This document shows positions 7,278 to 14,727 of a stretch of DNA of 14,727 nt, piece after piece (within the stretch, counting starts at the first letter, position 1; the number at the start of each line of letters is the position of its first letter). The DNA comes from a virus. Taxonomy: Duplodnaviria; Heunggongvirae; Uroviricota; Caudoviricetes. Position numbers and translations under genes: made by a program. The DNA is taken from the IMG/VR virus record IMGVR_UViG_651053023_000012, positions 1 to 14,727 of that record. One strand, written 5' to 3'. The notes beneath the pieces are model-generated. The model was given only the letters and a program-made list of their open reading frames with translations. It was not told the origin of the DNA and made no database searches.

Positions 7278-8405
7278 TCATGCTTTCCACTTCAGGACAC
7301 CCGAATTTCTCGCGTGCATTAAAAAACGAATCAGCAACAACAGCTGGCTGCCGTGTTTTTCTTCAAAATCTTTTACCCCGGCGTGCAGTTCGTTATGACA
7401 TTTACGGCACAGCGGAATAACAAACAAATCATCAGCCTTTGTTCCCATCCCTCCCAGTCCATGACCAATGATGTGATGCGGATCATCTGCCTGATTACCG
7501 CACGTCATGCATTTCTGCGTTTTTACCCAGCGCGTGTATACAGGCATCTCTTCCCGTTGTGGTTTCTGGCGCTGGAGATACTGAGCCGGTGACTCCGGAT
7601 CAACGGCAATGCTTACCACCGTCTTTTCCTGTGGCGGGTTTTGCTGGTGGGCGTGAGGCAGCGGCGCAAGATTTTTTGTGCGCTGCTTCAGTATGCTGGT
7701 GGCGGTCTGCTCTCCCGGCACGATGTCGCTTTCACGGTACATTGAGCGGATTTTTTCCGCACGCAACCCCAGCGAACGACGTAATACCGCTTCCGGTAGC
7801 GCGTCCGCCACCTGATTGCGGACCGCCCACCAGGATAATTCAGCCAAAGATAATTCACGCTCCTGCGTACCGCTTATTGCGTGACCGATGACGTCAATCA
7901 TCCATGCTGACAGGTTTTGATGAGCAAGTTGCTCGAGTGATTCGGATGTCTGGTCACGTAGCTGGTTGTCGCAGTGCCAGCACAACACCATTGCGCCGGT
8001 ACCATAACAGTGAATGACGGTTTCGCTGTGATGATAATCGCCGTGTGGCCACTGGCAGGATTTAATATGGCGCAACAGCCAGTCAGACAATGCACCAGCA
8101 CCACCAGCAGCACGAATCACCCGTGCGTTACTGAAAAACGGCAGCAATGTTTTGTCTTCCACCAGCGGCTGGCGAGCGGCAGGGACGACTCCGGACGGCA
8201 GACCGCGCATGCTTTTCGGTTCAGGCTCCACCAGCACTCGAGGGTTATGAAATACTTGCATGGATTCACGGCCCGGCCTAAGGACAACCAGCCCAAGTTC
8301 CGGTACCAGAACAGGTCGAAGTAATATCCGCACGTTACCTCCAGATCCGTTGCTGGTATGTGCGGGATGGGCGCGGTGGGCGTTCGGAATAAGGGAGCCT
8401 GACAT
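7278..8405 (-). CDS. DUF968/YdfU-like prophage protein with a C-terminal zinc-finger, HNH-like motif. Start is uncertain (alternative ATG at 8259-8261).
   Basis: C-terminus CMTCGNQADDPHHIIGHGLGGMGTKADDLFVIPLCRKCHNELH. Further Cys/His pairs sit in the middle (HCYGTGAMVLCWHCDNQ). Its position between rusA and hok matches Qin-type prophage order as recalled. Confidence 0.6.
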   Translation of the reverse strand: MSGSLIPNAHRAHPAHTSNGSGGNVRILLRPVLVPELGLVVLRPGRESMQVFHNPRVLVEPEPKSMRGLPSGVVPAARQPLVEDKTLLPFFSNARVIRAAGGAGALSDWLLRHIKSCQWPHGDYHHSETVIHCYGTGAMVLCWHCDNQLRDQTSESLEQLAHQNLSAWMIDVIGHAISGTQERELSLAELSWWAVRNQVADALPEAVLRRSLGLRAEKIRSMYRESDIVPGEQTATSILKQRTKNLAPLPHAHQQNPPQEKTVVSIAVDPESPAQYLQRQKPQREEMPVYTRWVKTQKCMTCGNQADDPHHIIGHGLGGMGTKADDLFVIPLCRKCHNELHAGVKDFEEKHGSQLLLLIRFLMHARNSGVLKWKA

Positions 8406-8613
8406 AGATTATCCAGTGACGATAATCGAGGCTGAGGGCTTTCTTAACCTCGTATCCGCGCCTGCGGTAACACTGAATTATCCATTCCGCCTGCTCTTCA
8501 GTGCATGGAGGATGCTGGAACCAGTCTGATTTGAATACGTGAAAACGCCGTCCGCGCCTGCTGGCAAAGACGGCAGAATCATTAGAATTGTGTAATTTGG
8601 TATCGTGCGCCAT
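8335..8613 (-). CDS. Hypothetical protein (~93 aa from MAHDTKLHNSN...), overlapping the annotated 5' end of the DUF968-like ORF.
   Basis: Open reading frame only; the Shine-Dalgarno is weak. A longer start at 8694 would fall inside the terminator at 8685-8710. No family recognised. Confidence 0.3.
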   Translation of the reverse strand: MAHDTKLHNSNDSAVFASRRGRRFHVFKSDWFQHPPCTEEQAEWIIQCYRRRGYEVKKALSLDYRHWIIYVRLPYSERPPRPSRTYQQRIWR

Positions 8614-8684
8614 CGGTTGTCTCTGCTGGCGCAGCAGGTGCCAGTTGTTCAGGCTGGCGTGCGTATTGTAAACCAGAATGCCAG

Positions 8685-8710
8685 AAAAAAACAAAACCCG
8701 CCGAAGCGGG
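8685..8710 (-). terminator. Intrinsic terminator (minus strand) downstream of the lipoprotein gene.
   Basis: Minus strand: CCCGC-ttcg-GCGGG followed by TTTTGTTTTTTT. Confidence 0.55.
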
Positions 8711-8840
8711 TATGCTAAAACAAACTGAAGGTAATATGCCGGACTTGTAAAGGAACGATAGAATAATTATCGGATTAAATCCTGACTCAATCCATAGGAT
8801 TTACAGCGTTTTCACTAATAATTTACCGTCCCGCTATACA

Positions 8841-9233
8841 TTACTGCCCAGTTTTAACGAAGTTTTTAAAGGAAACAATTGCCTGATAGGGGTTTGGTTG
8901 ACAGCCAAACATATTATCGCAAAAAGGCTTGATGAAAATTCTTGCGGATCCATCTTCATTTGGCATTTTACTCACTTGATAAGCGAGGAATGGGCTATTT
9001 GGTGAAGGGTTATAAGTGGAAATTAGCGTGTTTGTCGCCGTTTGAATTTTCCATGAGGAATTATTAGCCAACCAGAATTGCGCTCGTTTCCAATAAAAGT
9101 CACATTGCTTTTCATCTTTACATGTTAGTGGCTTCATTGCTTCTGCTTTCAACGCTGGATCGACCTTTGCTGCACACCCTCCCAACATTACTGTTGCAAT
9201 CATTACACCTACGACTAAAACAAGTTTCTTCAT
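8841..9233 (-). CDS. Lipoprotein of unknown function (AT-rich moron).
   Basis: Signal peptide MKKLVLVVGVMIATVMLGGC with a lipobox L-G-G-C. The coding sequence is visibly AT-rich. GGGAG lies just upstream of the ATG. Confidence 0.7.
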   Translation of the reverse strand: MKKLVLVVGVMIATVMLGGCAAKVDPALKAEAMKPLTCKDEKQCDFYWKRAQFWLANNSSWKIQTATNTLISTYNPSPNSPFLAYQVSKMPNEDGSARIFIKPFCDNMFGCQPNPYQAIVSFKNFVKTGQ

Positions 9234-9290
9234 CTCCCTGCCCCATCAATAAAAGTTCGGTTCTCTAATAACTAGAGTTAATCAACGGAA

Positions 9291-9308
9291 AAAACGCCGA
9301 AGCGGGTT
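9291..9308 (-). terminator. Weak candidate terminator downstream of hok.
   Basis: Minus strand: CGC-c(UUCG)g-GCG short stem with a UUCG tetraloop, followed by T6. Confidence 0.35.
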
Positions 9309-9376
9309 AAGTGCGGGTGCGTTGAGGATGCCTGACACATCAGAGGTGGCGAGGGATTTCTCCCCCGCCAGGTCTC

Positions 9377-9532
9377 TTACTCCTCAGGTTCGTAAGCTGT
9401 GAAGACAGCGACCTCCGTCTGGCCGGTTCGGATTCGTACCTCGCAGAGGTCTTTCCTCGTTACCAGTGCCGTCACTATGACGGTTAAACAGATGACGATC
9501 AGGACGATTAACATCGCCTTTTGCTGCTTCAT
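9377..9532 (-). CDS. hokD: Hok/Gef-family type I toxin (HokD/RelF-like), 51 aa.
   Basis: MKQQKAMLIVLIVICLTVIVTALVTRKDLCEVRIRTGQTEVAVFTAYEPEE matches HokD as I recall it with a single substitution. GGAG sits 9 nt upstream of the ATG. Confidence 0.9.
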   Translation of the reverse strand: MKQQKAMLIVLIVICLTVIVTALVTRKDLCEVRIRTGQTEVAVFTAYEPEE

Positions 9533-9740
9533 AGCCTGCTTCTCCTTGCCTTTCGGCACGTAAGAGGCTAACCTAGATTTGCCGTTCATAGATTGAGCCT
9601 CAGATTAATGTTAAGCGTCTTGCAGGACGCGTAATGTTAACTGGGGCTTTTCTCTATCTGCCTTTGGTGTTCATGCCTGAGACAGATAGCCTCAAGCACC
9701 CGCAGCCATTCTACTTAACTCCCGTTACCTCGCCAATATG
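9533..9740 (-). promoter_or_regulatory. hok mRNA leader region (expected site of the mok frame and the antisense Sok RNA in hok/sok-type loci); boundaries are approximate.
   Basis: Inferred from hok/sok locus architecture. An in-frame upstream ATG at 9587-9589 gives a 70-codon frame. I could not map the sok promoter by eye. Confidence 0.35.
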
Positions 9741-10156
9741 AAATCAGTCAGAAAGGCGATCCATAAGAACAACAGCAAGGCAATAAATTGCCATTACAGC
9801 AGCAATAGCCAGCGCACATTTGAGAACCAGCACCACAACCTCCTGTATTGGACGTACACCAGTCCTGATAAATATGAGGCTGTCTCGTCAGTGATTCAAT
9901 ACAACTATTGGGTATAGTTTCTGTGATTTTGTTCTGTAGAAATGGAACACAACAACCAGTCACCACCAGCACTTCTTTAAATACGCCAAGTCCGACGCAA
10001 GCTAACCTTCTAGTCCGCTTTGAGCGAAAAGCAGACTGTCACGCGTTGAAGTTAATTGTATTACTTAGATAAACACTATCATTTTCCTGACGTTAAGTTG
10101 TATCTTTGATAGGATTAAAAAACGTATAGATAGCTTATGCTACTGAGGGAATAAAA

Positions 10157-10966
10157 ATGACGAAAATTAGTGAACGATGGAAGCACAATGGCATTACTGA
10201 AGGTTATTGCAATATTTGTGGGAAATATGGCTTGCTCACAAAAGATCATGTTCCTCCAAAGTGCGCCATAACCTTAGGCCCTGTTTTGCAGAAAACAGTT
10301 AGCGAATTTTTTGGTATTCAGGAACCAGTTAAACCATTAAATGCTAAAAATGGCTCTTATTTCAGAACCATTTGCAGCCACTGTAACAATAAGGTATTAG
10401 GTGGGCTCGATGTTGCAATTGAAAATGTAACAAAGTCCTTTAAAGAACAGTTAAGGCGATATATGAATGGTATGAATGTATATCCATTCATTAGAATACC
10501 TTTTGATAGCATATCTTTCACTAAGGCTATGATTGGGCACGTGCTATCAGCAACTTCAGTTGAAGATTGTAAAAAAGAACCCGTAGATAGCCCCTTCTAT
10601 ACACCTTTAAAGGATTATGTTTTGGGTAAAAATTCAAGTTTTGAGGAAACTCATGATATTTACTACTGGTTTTACCCACACAGAATGCACATATCCGCTC
10701 AAAGTGTAGCATTTATGAACGAAGGACATGTGGCATTTATTTGTGCTTTACATTTTTTCCCTATCGGTTTTATTATCACAATGAAAAATGAAGGAACATA
10801 CCCTGCCCACTCTACAAAATTAGAACTTGAAGATAAATTCCTTACATTTAATATGACCTCTATAAATTATGAGTATACGACATTTCCATTTGTAAATCTT
10901 AAGGGAAACCAAATGTATGCGATAAGCAACGGTCATACTTGTGTGAGTTATCCAATAATTAAGTGA
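10157..10966 (+). CDS. Protein with an N-terminal McrA-type HNH nuclease motif and a ~185-aa C-terminal domain of unrecognised family; candidate defence/toxin cargo or free-standing homing endonuclease.
   Basis: CNICGK-x8-DHVPPK-...-N-...-CSHCNN within the first ~80 aa. GAGGG lies 7 nt upstream of the ATG. The gene is visibly AT-rich and on the opposite strand to all neighbouring phage genes. Confidence 0.7.
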   Translation: MTKISERWKHNGITEGYCNICGKYGLLTKDHVPPKCAITLGPVLQKTVSEFFGIQEPVKPLNAKNGSYFRTICSHCNNKVLGGLDVAIENVTKSFKEQLRRYMNGMNVYPFIRIPFDSISFTKAMIGHVLSATSVEDCKKEPVDSPFYTPLKDYVLGKNSSFEETHDIYYWFYPHRMHISAQSVAFMNEGHVAFICALHFFPIGFIITMKNEGTYPAHSTKLELEDKFLTFNMTSINYEYTTFPFVNLKGNQMYAISNGHTCVSYPIIK

Positions 10967-11112
10967 CGGCTAAATCATACAATCTACGCATGTTCACTTT
11001 CTACATATACCATCTATAATGTCCGCTGTTGGCACAAAGCGGACAACCACGCTAGCTCTACCCTGTGCCACAAAAAGTCAATTTGCATCTGAACTAATGC
11101 ACTTGAATCTCG

Positions 11113-11535
11113 TCACTTCAATAAATACCGAACATCCCCCTGATAAAACGACAATATGCGCTGCATAACTTCACTCTTCCGGCACTCGCGACAGATTATG
11201 TTCTGACGCCTGTCGTAGCGACGTATTTCTCCGTCAGGTAATGACCAGATAAGGTCCGAATCAACCGCAGATGGTTTCTTCAGCTTTGCCCTTGAGAGCT
11301 TTTTACGGGCATTTTGCCAGTCCTTACGCGCCTGTTCAGACGGGAATAACCCGTAACCAGAGTTGTATACATCGCCGCTGGCAACCAGCTCTCTTGCGAG
11401 AACGCTCATCAGATATCTTGTCGCACCTGTTTTGACTTCCAGTTGCCGTAACGTCTCACGCCCACTCTGGCGTACGAGTTCAACAACCTGCCCTTTAATT
11501 TTTTCTCGCTCTTCTTGTGTAAAAACTTTTGCCAC
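11113..11535 (-). CDS. Hypothetical protein, possibly DNA-binding (HTH-like N-terminus); last gene of the replication operon. GTG start.
   Basis: The GTG at 11533-11535 is preceded by AGGAGG with 4-nt spacing. Translation is MAKVFTQEEREKIKGQVVELVRQSGRETLRQLEVKTGATRYL.... No Walker motif, so it is not DnaC-like. Confidence 0.55.
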   Translation of the reverse strand: MAKVFTQEEREKIKGQVVELVRQSGRETLRQLEVKTGATRYLMSVLARELVASGDVYNSGYGLFPSEQARKDWQNARKKLSRAKLKKPSAVDSDLIWSLPDGEIRRYDRRQNIICRECRKSEVMQRILSFYQGDVRYLLK

Positions 11536-11575
11536 AAGTCCTCCTGAAAATTACCTCATGACCAGAAATCAACAC

Positions 11576-12646
11576 TTACCCCCTGAAGCCCGGTGGAATT
11601 TCGGTATCCGGTTCAGAAATATGATTCACACAACGCTGGTTGTTCGTGCCGCTTACCGGGAGCAGCCAGGGGTTTTCAAAATTCCGGTCCGGTCCAAAAA
11701 ACGTCGTCGCTCGCTGAACAAATTCCGTTCCCGTTTTCCCGGTAGCCGCAAGGTATCTTGCGTAACGCCTCACGCCATCCAGCATGGCCTCTGGTGACAC
11801 CCCCTCGCGTAATCTGGCCTTCCAAGCACTGAAAGCGGATTTCTTCGGGTTTGCCCCAGCACGCAACGGGTATTCCCGCCAGACCTGTTCGAACACATCC
11901 GGATAATCCACTCGTCCCACAGGCTGCCCGGTGTTTTCCGGGACTACCCGATCGGCTTCCCGCTGAATGGCGGAATCGGCTTCAGGCTGCTGCAGTTGGT
12001 GTGATTGCTCCGGCCTTGCGGTCATCACCTGCTGCACAGCGCCCGAATCGGCTTTCAGCGCATACGCTGAATCGGCTTCCGGTGTCGTGCCTGCTGGCTG
12101 ACCAAGATTGACGGTCTGAACATCCCCTGCCTGGTTCGTGGCGTTTTTTACGCCATGGACCATAGTGTTTTGATCTTCTTGATCTGTATCTTTATCTGTA
12201 TCTTTATCTGTCGTGACTCGTCGTGACATGTGCGTGACATTTCGTGACGCGCCGTGACAATCGCCATTTTGTTCCCGCTTTCTTTCCCTCTCTCGCTGCG
12301 CCCTCTTGCGCTCTGCAGGAGATTTTGCGGTTTGCGAAATATTGCCGTTGTCCTCTTTAAGCACCTGGCGTTTTTCCCATCCAGTGATTAAATCACCATC
12401 AAGTACCCGCCCCTGCATCGTCTGCAAAATTGAATCAATTACCTCTTCTGTCACGTCGAGCGCACTTGCCAAATCTTCTGTCGTGACATCAATGTGACCT
12501 CGCGTGACATTTCGTGACGCGCTCACCAGGAGGTGGATATACACTGCCATCACTGTTGCAATTGGCTGCCCTGACACCCTGGCAATTGTTCGCCACTTAG
12601 GGTCATTTGGCATGTCATGCCATAATCTGAGCCAGGCGTTAGCCAT
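11576..12646 (-). CDS. Putative phage replication initiation protein (YdaU/O-like) with iteron arrays embedded in the coding sequence.
   Basis: The ATG at 12644-12646 is preceded by GAGGTG. It sits downstream of the Cro-like and YdaT-like genes, as in Rac. Two clusters of GTGAC repeats with 10-11 bp periodicity lie inside the gene. Confidence 0.6.
   Translation of the reverse strand: MANAWLRLWHDMPNDPKWRTIARVSGQPIATVMAVYIHLLVSASRNVTRGHIDVTTEDLASALDVTEEVIDSILQTMQGRVLDGDLITGWEKRQVLKEDNGNISQTAKSPAERKRAQRERERKREQNGDCHGASRNVTHMSRRVTTDKDTDKDTDQEDQNTMVHGVKNATNQAGDVQTVNLGQPAGTTPEADSAYALKADSGAVQQVMTARPEQSHQLQQPEADSAIQREADRVVPENTGQPVGRVDYPDVFEQVWREYPLRAGANPKKSAFSAWKARLREGVSPEAMLDGVRRYARYLAATGKTGTEFVQRATTFFGPDRNFENPWLLPVSGTNNQRCVNHISEPDTEIPPGFRG
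12211..12260. repeat. Iteron-like array A: five GTGAC cores at 10-11 bp spacing, preceded by a 12-bp tandem repeat (tctgtatcttta, two copies) at 12182-12205.
   Basis: tcgtgactcg tcgtgacatg tgcgtgacat ttcgtgacgc gccgtgacaa. It shares the 21-mer gcgtgacatttcgtgacgcgc with array B. Confidence 0.5.
12481..12520. repeat. Iteron-like array B: four GTGAC cores at 10-11 bp spacing, plus an inverted core at ~12450.
   Basis: tcgtgacatc aatgtgacct cgcgtgacat ttcgtgacgc. Confidence 0.5.
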
Positions 12647-12717
12647 ACTCACCTCTTCTGATACCGAATCTTTTTACTCACGAGTTGCCGGAAGTGATTC
12701 GATATGGCTATTATCAC

Positions 12718-13143
12718 TCAATGCACTGCCACAGCATTTCCTGCCGGGCCACCACGGTTCATCTGATTGAAACCGGCGATTGCCACTGCGACAAAATCAT
12801 CAGCGTCTCTCACCAGTCGCTCCCGCGTCTCCACCAGCTCCCGAAAATAAGCTGAACTGTGGCTGCGCATTCTGGCCACCAGCAAAGGTGGCATTGCCTT
12901 TTCGATCGCTGGTAACAACGCCTGAATTTTTTCAACTGCATCAGGGGTGTCTTTCTCTACCCAGCGGAAAATTTTCTGGGTATTGCGAGCCAGGGCTTCC
13001 GGATGGCTGTCGTCATACAGTTCTGGGAACATCATACCCAACTCAAAATAAGCCTGGGTTATTCCAGCCGCCGGAACTTTTTCGCCATCAGGACGCGCCC
13101 AGGCATTCATCGCCATGCGGATGTGTTCATGCTTGATTTTCAT
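12718..13143 (-). CDS. YdaT-like protein (proposed CII-analogue/toxic regulator in Rac-type prophages).
   Basis: The N-terminus MKIKHEHI matches what I recall for YdaT, and the size is ~140 aa. It overlaps the upstream Cro-like gene by 17 nt, as a ydaS-ydaT pair would. Confidence 0.6.
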   Translation of the reverse strand: MKIKHEHIRMAMNAWARPDGEKVPAAGITQAYFELGMMFPELYDDSHPEALARNTQKIFRWVEKDTPDAVEKIQALLPAIEKAMPPLLVARMRSHSSAYFRELVETRERLVRDADDFVAVAIAGFNQMNRGGPAGNAVAVH

Positions 13144-13408
13144 GAATCAAGCTCCTAGAAAGTGGTTGTGTTAACGTTTTGGTATCTTCCAGCTCGGGCC
13201 AAATATTCATCCAATCAAAAGGCCTTAGTTGCTGACGTGTAACTTCACCATTACTGGCTCGCTCAATAAGGACGCATAACGATGCCCCTAACACTTGACC
13301 TTTACTCAATGCCTTTCTTAGATAACCGATGCTGGTACCACACTCGCATGCAAACATACGCTGTTCATCTGACGAAAGAGAATTGAGAAATATTCTTAAT
13401 TCTTCCAT
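13127..13408 (-). CDS. YdaS-like HTH protein (Cro analogue), first gene of the rightward early operon.
   Basis: AAGGAG Shine-Dalgarno. HTH segment CGTSIGYLRKALSKGQVLGASLCVLIERASNGEVT. It is divergent from a repressor gene, with operator repeats between them. Confidence 0.7.
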   Translation of the reverse strand: MEELRIFLNSLSSDEQRMFACECGTSIGYLRKALSKGQVLGASLCVLIERASNGEVTRQQLRPFDWMNIWPELEDTKTLTQPLSRSLIHENQA

Positions 13409-13436
13409 AGCTACTCCTTAGTAAACACAGTAAAGA

Positions 13437-13480
13437 ATACCCACAGGTAAACAAAAGTCAATACCCACAGGTTGTTTACC
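13437..13480. promoter_or_regulatory. Operator-like repeats in the divergent repressor/Cro intergenic region (OR-like).
   Basis: ATACCCACAGG occurs twice (13437-13447 and 13461-13471), with an inverted pair ggtaaaca/tgtttacc. The same ATACCCA half-site recurs in the palindromes at 13971-14008. Confidence 0.45.
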
Positions 13481-13508
13481 TTGCGGTAATCGCATCTATT
13501 ATTTACCT

Positions 13509-13928
13509 ATGGACAAATATGAATTTAGACGACAGCAACTCATCAAAATTCGTGATGAGAAATGCGATGGTAAAGCGGTTAACGTGGCCAGAAAGATCGG
13601 GCGCGAGCCTTCTTATGTATCAAGAATGTTGTACCCAGAGGGGAAAAAGGGAAAAAAACGGATCGCTGATGATATGGTGGAGATTATCGAAGAGTCCTTT
13701 GGGTTACCCCGGGGATGGATGGATGGTATCGTTTCATCATCAACGAACACAGCCTCCAGTTATGAAACAAGGGTTCTAACGCCACGACAACGTATTTTTT
13801 TAGATCTCTTAGACGAACTGCCAGAAAGTGAAGCGGATAACTTATTAAAAACTCTTGAAGAGAAAAAACAGTATTACAATATGATCTACGAAGAAATCCG
13901 TAAAAAGAAAGCACAAAACGCATCATAG
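13509..13928 (+). CDS. Prophage repressor (RacR-like, XRE-type HTH, no obvious S24 peptidase domain).
   Basis: HTH segment AVNVARKIGREPSYVSRMLYPEG. There is no Shine-Dalgarno upstream of the ATG, so the transcript may be leaderless as for lambda cI from PRM. The gene is divergent from the Cro-like gene. Confidence 0.65.
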   Translation: MDKYEFRRQQLIKIRDEKCDGKAVNVARKIGREPSYVSRMLYPEGKKGKKRIADDMVEIIEESFGLPRGWMDGIVSSSTNTASSYETRVLTPRQRIFLDLLDELPESEADNLLKTLEEKKQYYNMIYEEIRKKKAQNAS

Positions 13929-13970
13929 CTCACCAAACAACTAGTCACCAGTTAAGACACCGCAAAAAGT

Positions 13971-14008
13971 TACCCATGGGTATTTACTTTTTAAATACCT
14001 ATGGGTAT
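13971..14008. promoter_or_regulatory. Operator-like palindromes downstream of the repressor gene (OL-like), upstream of the leftward early genes.
   Basis: Perfect 12-bp palindrome TACCCATGGGTA (13971-13982) and imperfect ATACCTATGGGTAT (13995-14008), 25 bp apart. Confidence 0.45.
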
Positions 14009-14193
14009 CCTTCTTTTCATACCAACCCACCCCGCCCCACAGAATGCAGGGCAATACTTCGAGTTACCAGGCAGTGGTCAGGGGTTAAGTAGCCAGCCCG
14101 AGGCGTAAGAACATGACGGCAGGGTTCAACTTTAATAACTATGCAGCAGGTTTTTGTTCCGCTACCCCAGCGTTAAGGGGAAATGAGGTCAGC

Positions 14194-14349
14194 ATGGATA
14201 CTATCGATCTTGGCAACAACGAATCTCTGGTGTACGGCGTGTTTCCCAACCAGGACGGCACGTTCACCGCGATGACGTATACCAAAAGCAAAACGTTTAA
14301 AACCGAAAATGGTGCCCGTCGCTGGCTGGAAAGAAACTCAGGTGAGTGA
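14194..14349 (+). CDS. Small protein, YdaF-like (51 aa).
   Basis: ATG at 14194 preceded by GAGG. Translation MDTIDLGNNESLVYGVFPNQDGTFTAMTYTKSKTFKTENGARRWLERNSGE matches my recollection of Rac YdaF (memory only). Confidence 0.55.
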   Translation: MDTIDLGNNESLVYGVFPNQDGTFTAMTYTKSKTFKTENGARRWLERNSGE

Positions 14350-14350
14350 T

Positions 14351-14479
14351 ATGGATTTCGACACAATCATGGAAAAGGCTTACGAAGAATACTTCGAAGA
14401 CCTTGCCGAAGGCGAAGAAGCTCTCAGCTTCAGTGAGTTTAAACAGGCGCTTTCCAGCTCGGCAAAATCTAACGGCTGA
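14351..14479 (+). CDS. Small acidic protein, YdaG-like (42 aa).
   Basis: ATG one nt after the preceding stop. Translation MDFDTIMEKAYEEYFEDLAEGEEALSFSEFKQALSSSAKSNG. It is below the ORF-track cut-off; assignment is from memory. Confidence 0.45.
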   Translation: MDFDTIMEKAYEEYFEDLAEGEEALSFSEFKQALSSSAKSNG

Positions 14480-14508
14480 TAAGCGAAGTAGCACCGCGAG
14501 GAATCAGT

Positions 14509-14727
14509 ATGCAGAAACGAGAACCCGTCATAATCGCGCCAGACTATACCGATGATGAACTTTATGAGTGGATGCGCCAGAAAATTAATGCAGCGCAGGA
14601 TCTGAAATGGGCTAATGAAGCCAGGGCTAAGCAGGCTGAAAATCTGTCCGCTCTGGAGCAGGATATCACCAATCTGGAAAAAGCAGCGGCATTAAGCATT
14701 GCCAGAATGATTACATACCCGCGTTAA
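14509..14727 (+). CDS. Hypothetical early-left operon protein (72 aa); its stop coincides with the window end.
   Basis: Open reading frame in the same operon orientation as the YdaF/YdaG-like genes. No recognisable motif. Confidence 0.45.
   Translation: MQKREPVIIAPDYTDDELYEWMRQKINAAQDLKWANEARAKQAENLSALEQDITNLEKAAALSIARMITYPR

Follow-up and report, generated by a model that had tools for sequence, protein, structure and literature searches.

A mobile-element-borne HNH-type protein family with an unmatched C-terminal region, a candidate in bacterial defence

A plus-strand gene at 10157..10966 of a 14,727-nucleotide (nt) stretch of viral DNA (Caudoviricetes; IMG/VR record IMGVR_UViG_651053023_000012, positions 1 to 14,727; hereafter the window) encodes a putative nuclease belonging to a broad, uncharacterised protein family (PHROG 21495; phrog_21495, unannotated). 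Its open reading frame (ORF) is intact, starts with ATG, and specifies 269 amino acids (aa). The interpretation preferred here, with a probability of about one half, is that of a stand-alone, mobile-element-borne HNH (HNN) nuclease whose C-terminal region would control or direct it, and which would act against phages, plasmids, or rival elements. The catalytic motif is conserved among the relatives compared, the protein is under purifying selection, and the gene travels as solo cargo and resides in validated hotspots; nuclease activity, its trigger and target, regulation by the C-terminal region, and the role in defence are predicted from sequence and genomic context.

The N-terminal motif and the C-terminal region

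An HNH_5-type (HNN) zinc-ribbon nuclease region occupies residues 16-85 (10202..10411, plus strand), where the motif reads C18-x2-C21, D30-H31-V-P-P-K, and C73-x2-C76-N77, with N77 directly after the last cysteine. Across 73 diverse relatives (19-45% identity to the window protein), C18, C21, H31, C73, C76, and N77 are invariant and D30 is retained in 98.6%; equally invariant are D85 (10409-10411), at the end of the HNH region, and G127, H128, W171, P202, and P244 in the remainder of the protein. An earlier note on this DNA, made from the letters alone, had recognised an HNH nuclease motif at the N-terminus, and the retention of the catalytic-type residues in all of this diversity upholds that reading. 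Its further label, "McrA-type", does not hold, as the best models are HNH_5 and Endonuclease_7 and an asparagine rather than a histidine follows the second CxxC.

The motif corresponds closely to that of structurally characterised enzymes. In Gme HNH (Gmet_0936, Protein Data Bank (PDB) entry 4H9D), zinc is held by C38/C41/C73/C76 and the active site comprises D53-H54, N68, and N77, the last of which directly follows the final zinc ligand in an "HNN" variant common to Hpy99I and T4 endonuclease VII; the Hpy99I equivalents of the dyad and the asparagine are D148-H149 and N165 (PMC3765158). The residues C18/C21/C73/C76, D30-H31, and N77 of the window protein map one-to-one onto those of 4H9D, which designates C18 (10208-10210), C21 (10217-10219), C73 (10373-10375), and C76 (10382-10384) as putative zinc ligands and D30-H31 (10244-10249) and N77 (10385-10387) as putative catalytic residues. 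All three characterised enzymes thus share with the window protein a [CxxC]2 zinc ribbon, a D-H dyad ending the first strand, and an asparagine after the last cysteine. Several differences are nevertheless apparent: the window protein adds an insert of ~23 residues between H31 and C73 and a C-terminal region of ~185 aa to the Gme HNH layout, lacks the N-terminal DNA-binding domain of the Hpy99I type, and belongs to a family in which the equivalent of Asn68 is loosely conserved (N64/Q-x-G66) and which, unlike the Gme HNH group, is found strictly as mobile-element cargo.

Assignment of the N-terminus to an HNH-type nuclease motif follows from this family context, that is, from residue invariance and from HNH_5 matches among the relatives. 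When the 73 members were scanned singly, HNH_5 matched 16 at E<=0.01 (best E 2.3e-6), and single members matched Endonuclease_7 and PtuB, the Septu HNH effector (E 5.4e-5). HNH_5 was the top match for 10/10 N-terminal segments with a shorter insert, one of which, at 32.1 bits (E 1.1e-7), exceeded the HNH_5 gathering score of 27.5 in one uninterrupted alignment that takes in both cysteine boxes and spans profile positions 1-45 of 56. Searches of PDB sequences with full-length and N-terminal profiles returned non-significant matches only; the best of these for the N-terminal profile were Hpy99I and the Geobacter protein 4H9D, aligned motif for motif. Judged at the sequence level, the Cys/D-H/N pattern is more than chance, and the two CxxC pairs, the D-H dyad, and the asparagine would place the family in the HNH / beta-beta-alpha-Me superfamily as an HNH_5-like HNN variant.

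The family-specific C-terminal region (residues 86-269, 10412..10963, plus strand) has no detectable sequence or fold relative: residues 86-269 gave no match in Pfam, among PDB sequences, or in a PDB fold search, and both the whole protein and residues 89-269 gave nothing significant against Pfam, NCBIfam, or PADLOC and only the unannotated family in PHROGs. The earlier remark that some 185 residues resemble nothing recognisable is therefore confirmed across these resources. Long family members were likewise searched for informative domain fusions, and none was found. The structure model is confident and predicts that the HNH and C-terminal regions pack as a single globule, and the invariant D85, G127-H128 (10535-10540), W171 (10667-10669), P202, and P244 of the 73-member alignment suggest a functional surface.

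Comparison with known HNH systems sets the protein apart from each of them. McrA, which is borne by the e14 prophage, and other HNH type IV enzymes resemble it in joining an HNH domain to a second region in a single polypeptide without a partner methyltransferase. In the window protein, however, the domain order of McrA is reversed, the motif is HNN rather than HNH, and the C-terminus is unlike any modified-base reader; no modified-DNA reader domain was detectable there by Pfam, PDB sequence, or PDB fold searches, and the earlier suggestion of a modification-dependent (type IV-like) nuclease accordingly finds no footing. PtuB likewise presents an HNH motif in a defence-type context and is matched weakly by one family member, as noted above; in contrast to Septu and other multi-gene HNH systems, the window gene has neither an ATPase partner such as PtuA nor any other conserved partner.

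Distribution, selection, and mobility of the gene

The family is large. A word-indexed search recovered 93 full-length relatives in Gammaproteobacteria, and an exhaustive profile search recovered 1,798 cluster representatives (clusters defined at 50% identity) at E<=1e-3, 354 of them at E<=1e-30; among the matches listed, the best ones are mostly ~270 aa long and aligned over their full length. The copies borne by lambdoid and P2-like prophages differ by 44 nt and 15 aa, with a ratio of nonsynonymous to synonymous substitution rates (dN/dS) of 0.14 and 0 changes at invariant positions. By this sequence measure the protein is under purifying selection, and a dN/dS of 0.14 in a broad, length-conserved family points to a selected cellular function.

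Within the window, the gene lies between hok/sok and the replication genes of a defective lambdoid prophage. Segment 9000-12000 is matched with 100% identity by a Qin/Rac-like lambdoid prophage found in porcine E. coli (e.g., UMNF18); the annotation of the gene there is "hypothetical protein", with hokD on one side and a DUF977/replisome-organiser block on the other. At a GC content of 0.34-0.36, the gene is poorer in GC than the flanking phage genes (0.45-0.59; ~35% against ~50% for the prophage overall), and it is the sole annotated plus-strand gene between ~3176 and ~13408. A Shine-Dalgarno sequence (GAGGG, 10145-10149) is situated 7 nt 5' of the ATG in an AT-rich leader (10045..10156, plus strand), and the P2-like copy shares this leader, together with the gene, from position 10071; a consensus scan of this leader detected no plus-strand promoter, so that a promoter of its own would be weak or putative at most. 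The hokD/sok locus adjoins the gene at 9377-9701, and the sok antisense RNA (9527-9701) is confirmed by Rfam. The composition, ribosome-binding site, AT-rich upstream region, lone orientation, and hok neighbour described in the earlier note are all borne out by these data.

Among 5,426 complete E. coli genomes, 141 (2.6%) carry the gene, in 120 chromosomal and 29 plasmid places, and 122 carry a copy at >=99% identity. The hokD-DUF977 slot of lambdoid prophages is one recurring context. In P2-like prophages, the gene is found between the tail-sheath and tail-fibre-assembly genes, which in the P2 gene order is the Z/fun position. Z/fun is described as a second defence-enriched locus of P2, harbouring fun and three of the systems validated in that work (Vassallo et al., PMC9519451). 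On plasmids of Escherichia, Shigella, and Klebsiella, mostly predicted to be conjugative, it adjoins IS26 and a small tyrosine recombinase and has pemIK and relBE among its neighbours. Homologs in other genera occupy the end of an inovirus prophage beside DUF2726 (Vibrio), a serine-recombinase island (Pseudomonas), a P4-like integrase/AlpA/primase island with ParE/RelB modules (Pectobacterium), a small islet (Motilimonas), and a cos/terminase-adjacent prophage slot (Enterobacter). The Plesiomonas homolog is a single-ORF integron cassette in a large sedentary chromosomal integron (Plesiomonas shigelloides CP027852.1, 744947-765759), in which 22 same-orientation attC-like repeats of ~120 nt occur in 20.8 kb, two of them bracketing the gene; co-resident cassettes encode HEPN_AbiU2, Fic, NUDIX, a PLD-like nuclease, and SduA_C (Shedu-like), and an HNH cassette of this kind received no mention in the integron-defence papers searched. 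In IMG/VR, the gene was found at 21 loci, often at a prophage edge, with neighbours that include integrases, P2 GPA, portal, and terminase genes as well as strong PADLOC matches to SduA (3e-302), bSEFIR, LmuA, and PDC-S31/M18/M45/M48.

The insertion contexts thus number at least 11, are unrelated, and share no common flanking gene. No conserved partner gene was found across the contexts compared, and two neighbours of ~480 aa are mutually unrelated (E 1.0). The claims that the gene is horizontally acquired cargo in a variable prophage slot and a single-gene module are both sustained.

The boundaries of the mobile unit can be drawn closely. Direct repeats of 72% identity flank the gene: an imperfect 32-nt left repeat (10013..10044), the first 24 nt of which (GTCCGCTTTGAGCGAAAAGCAGAC) can form a hairpin, and a right repeat (11021..11052) containing GTCCGCTGTTGGCACAAAGCGGAC, with a 7-bp stem and a 10-nt loop and no T-tail; the hairpin pattern was found at 2 sites against 0.01 expected. 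On the left, homology with plasmid copies begins exactly at the boundary repeat, and flank homology with a prophage carrying a DUF5677 cargo stops at 10036. On the right, homology with the plasmid and P2 copies stops at 11036-11044, and flank homology with prophages carrying QueH or DUF5677 cargo resumes at 11017-11018. Lambdoid prophages and plasmids carry versions of the resulting ~1.0-kb unit that are 99.6% identical, and identity to the version in a P2-like prophage is 94%.

The 24-nt hairpin element (GTCYGCT-N10-AGCRGAC) marks cargo junctions more generally. In addition to both ends of this 1-kb unit, a diverged form of it borders the DUF5677 cargo of this slot on either side, and it recurs where the P2-borne copy ends on the right and 5' of relB on an IncF plasmid; coordinates outside the window are L020:1513-1537 and 2783-2807, L013:8865-8888, and L012:14284-14307. 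As it lacks a T-tail, it is not a typical terminator, and it may represent a recombination hotspot or a cassette boundary. The end hairpins of the window copy are not attC-like. With the Pectobacterium homolog, the hairpins are absent and homology ends at the ORF ends. For the family as a whole, the idea of a self-mobilising, hairpin-bounded HNH element was rejected on this ground and because the hairpins also delimit other cargos. The hokD-DUF977 slot itself is a general exchange site for morons, with a right-hand breakpoint that recurs at ~11017-11021; its hokD-adjacent cargo elsewhere consists of QueH (epoxyqueuosine reductase), an alpha/beta-hydrolase (in O157:H7-type prophages), DUF5677, or DUF7167 with small ORFs, and in K-12 Qin (L010:7120-8738) of relBE, ydfV, and flxA.

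Weighing a role in defence and its alternatives

Defence-type locations recur across the family: the P2 Z/fun locus, an island with SLATT/SMODS and DS-13, the integron array, and the vicinity of SduA, bSEFIR, and LmuA. Relatives have also been flagged computationally. The "predicted novel defense genes" of DefensePredictor include WP_187183634.1 (268 aa, "chaperonin", log-odds 8.36) and its cluster representative WP_001609855.1, designated PDP1 (267 aa, log-odds 7.50) (PMC13092281). These are 51% and 53% identical, respectively, to the window protein over the full length, keep all invariant residues, and are likewise solo genes, differing from it in sub-lineage and genomic context. Both were located in complete E. 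coli genomes by blastn with the Enterobacter family gene, and each adjoins a SLATT + SMODS nucleotidyltransferase pair (L016:5427-10224, E. coli AR_0374; L017:5635-7822), a repeated adjacency that could be an island coincidence or a functional link. PDP1 lies immediately 5' of WP_000387046.1/WP_001022716.1, which constitute DS-13 (TMO1), validated as a defence system in the same study (PMC13092281). Names given to family members by NCBI ("chaperonin", "metal-binding protein", "hypothetical protein") are uninformative, and "chaperonin" is a propagated misnomer to which neither sequence nor model lends support. When the DefensePredictor and Vassallo et al. supplements were searched for accessions and peptides of the window protein, the two homologs alone were found and the window allele itself was absent.

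In mechanistic terms, the zinc-ribbon HNH (HNN) motif would be built into a compact globule with the ~185-residue family-specific C-terminal region, and D30, H31, and N77 would coordinate a divalent metal ion and cleave or nick DNA. The C-terminal region would either select the substrate or silence the nuclease until an invader-derived cue, whether a DNA feature or a protein, is encountered. Such an enzyme might protect the host, or the element in which it resides, from incoming phages, plasmids, or rival elements, either cleaving the invader directly or damaging its own cell in an abortive response.

Several results weigh against this proposal. The most direct is the published test, in which PDP1 was cloned and carried on a plasmid in MG1655 and was scored defensive = FALSE (Table S6) with 24 coliphages (PMC13092281); in contrast to McrA, this family member restricted 0/24. 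Profile resources are also unsupportive, as PADLOC-DB v2 yielded zero matches to the window protein at E<=10, no NCBIfam model matched it, and it fell under every Pfam HNH cut-off (HNH_5, 11.5-15.2 bits against 27.5; PF01844, 13.8 against 21.4), sub-threshold scores that are in keeping with the splitting of the motif into two short stretches by the insert. Across the 73 members, PADLOC gave isolated weak matches only (one PtuB; Cas8c; PDC-M01B). Gme HNH, the closest characterised enzyme, is only a weak nickase with no assigned biological role (PMC3765158), and the hokD slot also holds non-defence cargo such as QueH and the alpha/beta-hydrolase, so that location alone is not decisive. The earlier description of the gene as a defence module is thus not borne out as stated, having been drawn from location for a protein that lacks a PADLOC model and whose 53%-identical homolog did not protect. 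The authors of the test observed that candidates they did not validate may depend on other hosts or on system boundaries drawn differently (PMC13092281), and the choice of phage panel may be a further caveat on the negative PDP1 result.

Four other explanations were weighed, of which a non-catalytic protein ranks first. A protein that keeps an HNH-like scaffold as a non-catalytic zinc ribbon, serving as a DNA- or protein-binding regulator or as an anti-defence factor, would be compatible with the ambiguous fold search. HNH derivatives that have become inactive have usually lost the D-H dyad or the Asn/His that follows the second CxxC, whereas here H31 and N77 remain invariant and D30 stays at 98.6% down to ~20% identity, at positions matching mutationally important residues of Gme HNH, and this explanation is regarded as unlikely. 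A selfish, free-standing HNH homing-type endonuclease, which cuts a target site in genomes that are without the gene, is copied in by repair, and benefits only itself, had been the alternative of the earlier note. HNH is a classic homing-endonuclease fold, the ~1.0-kb unit is sharply bounded with hairpin repeats at both ends and 99.6%/94% identity across elements, and PDP1 showed no anti-phage phenotype. Against this, the contexts (the hok slot, P2 Z/fun, the IS26 plasmid region, the P4-like island, the inovirus end, the attC cassette, the cos-adjacent slot, and the SLATT/SMODS island) have no target gene or flanks in common; a Pfam scan of the window protein detected none of the NUMOD, IENR1, or AP2 DNA-binding modules, the hairpins bound other cargos and are missing with the Pectobacterium homolog, mobility in Plesiomonas is supplied by the integron, and a dN/dS of 0.14 in a very broad, length-conserved family favours a selected cellular function. 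With at least 11 unrelated contexts and no conserved target gene, homing is disfavoured and is considered quite improbable.

The gene could also encode the toxin of an addiction or stabilisation (toxin-antitoxin-like) module that retains its prophage or plasmid, in line with the earlier proposal of a toxin module. A nuclease could act as a toxin, and the gene adjoins hokD/sok here, ParE/RelB in Pectobacterium, and pemIK and relBE on plasmids. That proposal is weakened, however, by the absence from all contexts of a small conserved neighbouring gene or RNA fit to be an antitoxin (the neighbours being unrelated), by the single-ORF cassette of Plesiomonas, and by the maintenance of PDP1 on a plasmid in MG1655, which together leave it with little likelihood. 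Least probable of the four, and very improbable, is a phage life-cycle role as a terminase-associated HNH protein that aids cos cleavage and packaging in the manner of HK97 gp74, even though the Enterobacter prophage and several viral contigs place the gene beside terminase or portal genes. In the window, the gene is AT-rich and lies in the early/replication region on the strand opposite to the phage genes; elsewhere its carriers include conjugative plasmids, integrons, and non-phage islands; the extra C-terminal region makes the protein more than 2x the size of packaging HNH proteins; and P2-like phages are known to have a cargo hotspot at the cos-adjacent position.

The mobile-element-borne, defence-directed nuclease stays the preferred reading, and the gene is best described as a good but unproven defence candidate. 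That HNH nucleases participate in defence and in mobile elements is already known, and this family has been flagged computationally and tested once without success; the novelty lies in its breadth and in an architecture particular to it, whose C-terminal fold is unrecognised. A bolder and more tentative version, which we consider possible but would not favour, is that the family (~1,800 clusters at 50% identity) comprises previously unrecognised single-protein immune nucleases whose C-terminus is a new sensor fold and whose targets are temperate phages, plasmids, rival mobile elements, or uncommon DNA modifications, and not standard lytic coliphages. A target outside the lytic coliphages would explain both the strict residence in hotspots and the negative PDP1 test.

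Should the protein prove to be an active, regulated nuclease, a compact 269-aa single-gene module and an unseen sensor or regulatory domain would be added to the known bacterial conflict systems, in a family that is very widespread among prophages, satellites, integrons, and conjugative plasmids, with plasmids of Shigella, Klebsiella, and E. coli among its carriers. The family is also a test case for prediction-based discovery, since models score it highly whereas its one test gave a negative result; identification of its actual target (temperate phages, plasmids, or modified DNA) would reveal gaps in standard lytic-phage panels. If the protein is instead inactive or selfish, it would caution that hotspot location by itself does not prove defence.

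Other features of the prophage

The defective state of the lambdoid prophage is evident from RefSeq, in which its tail-tip and DUF1441 genes are marked as pseudogenes, and from a 77-nt direct repeat (97% identity; 1841-1917 and 3325-3401), which places an M15 endolysin fragment inside a chimeric 476-aa tail-tip ORF (702-2132) and is a rearrangement scar indicative of a defective prophage. A second AT-rich cargo gene on the plus strand (2512-2982; GC 0.30-0.40), flanked by the truncated tail genes and the lysis cassette, is annotated as a member of the histidine phosphatase family and is probably another moron. The DUF968 protein (7278-8405, minus strand) carries its own C-terminal HNH-like motif, CMTCGNQADDPHHIIGH...CRKCHNELH, so that the window encodes two different HNH-type proteins. 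A strong Rfam match to IS009 (230 bits) is located at the left window end (41-239, minus strand), within the tail-fibre-assembly gene region. Lastly, the prophage bears three tRNA genes (4672-4981, minus strand), which separate the antiterminator Q/AraC-like regulator region from the holins. By ARAGORN, two of them are Gly(tcc) and Thr(tgt); the third has a CAT anticodon and is assigned to Met by ARAGORN and to Ile by RefSeq, and the latter call would imply a lysidine-modified tRNA-Ile2.

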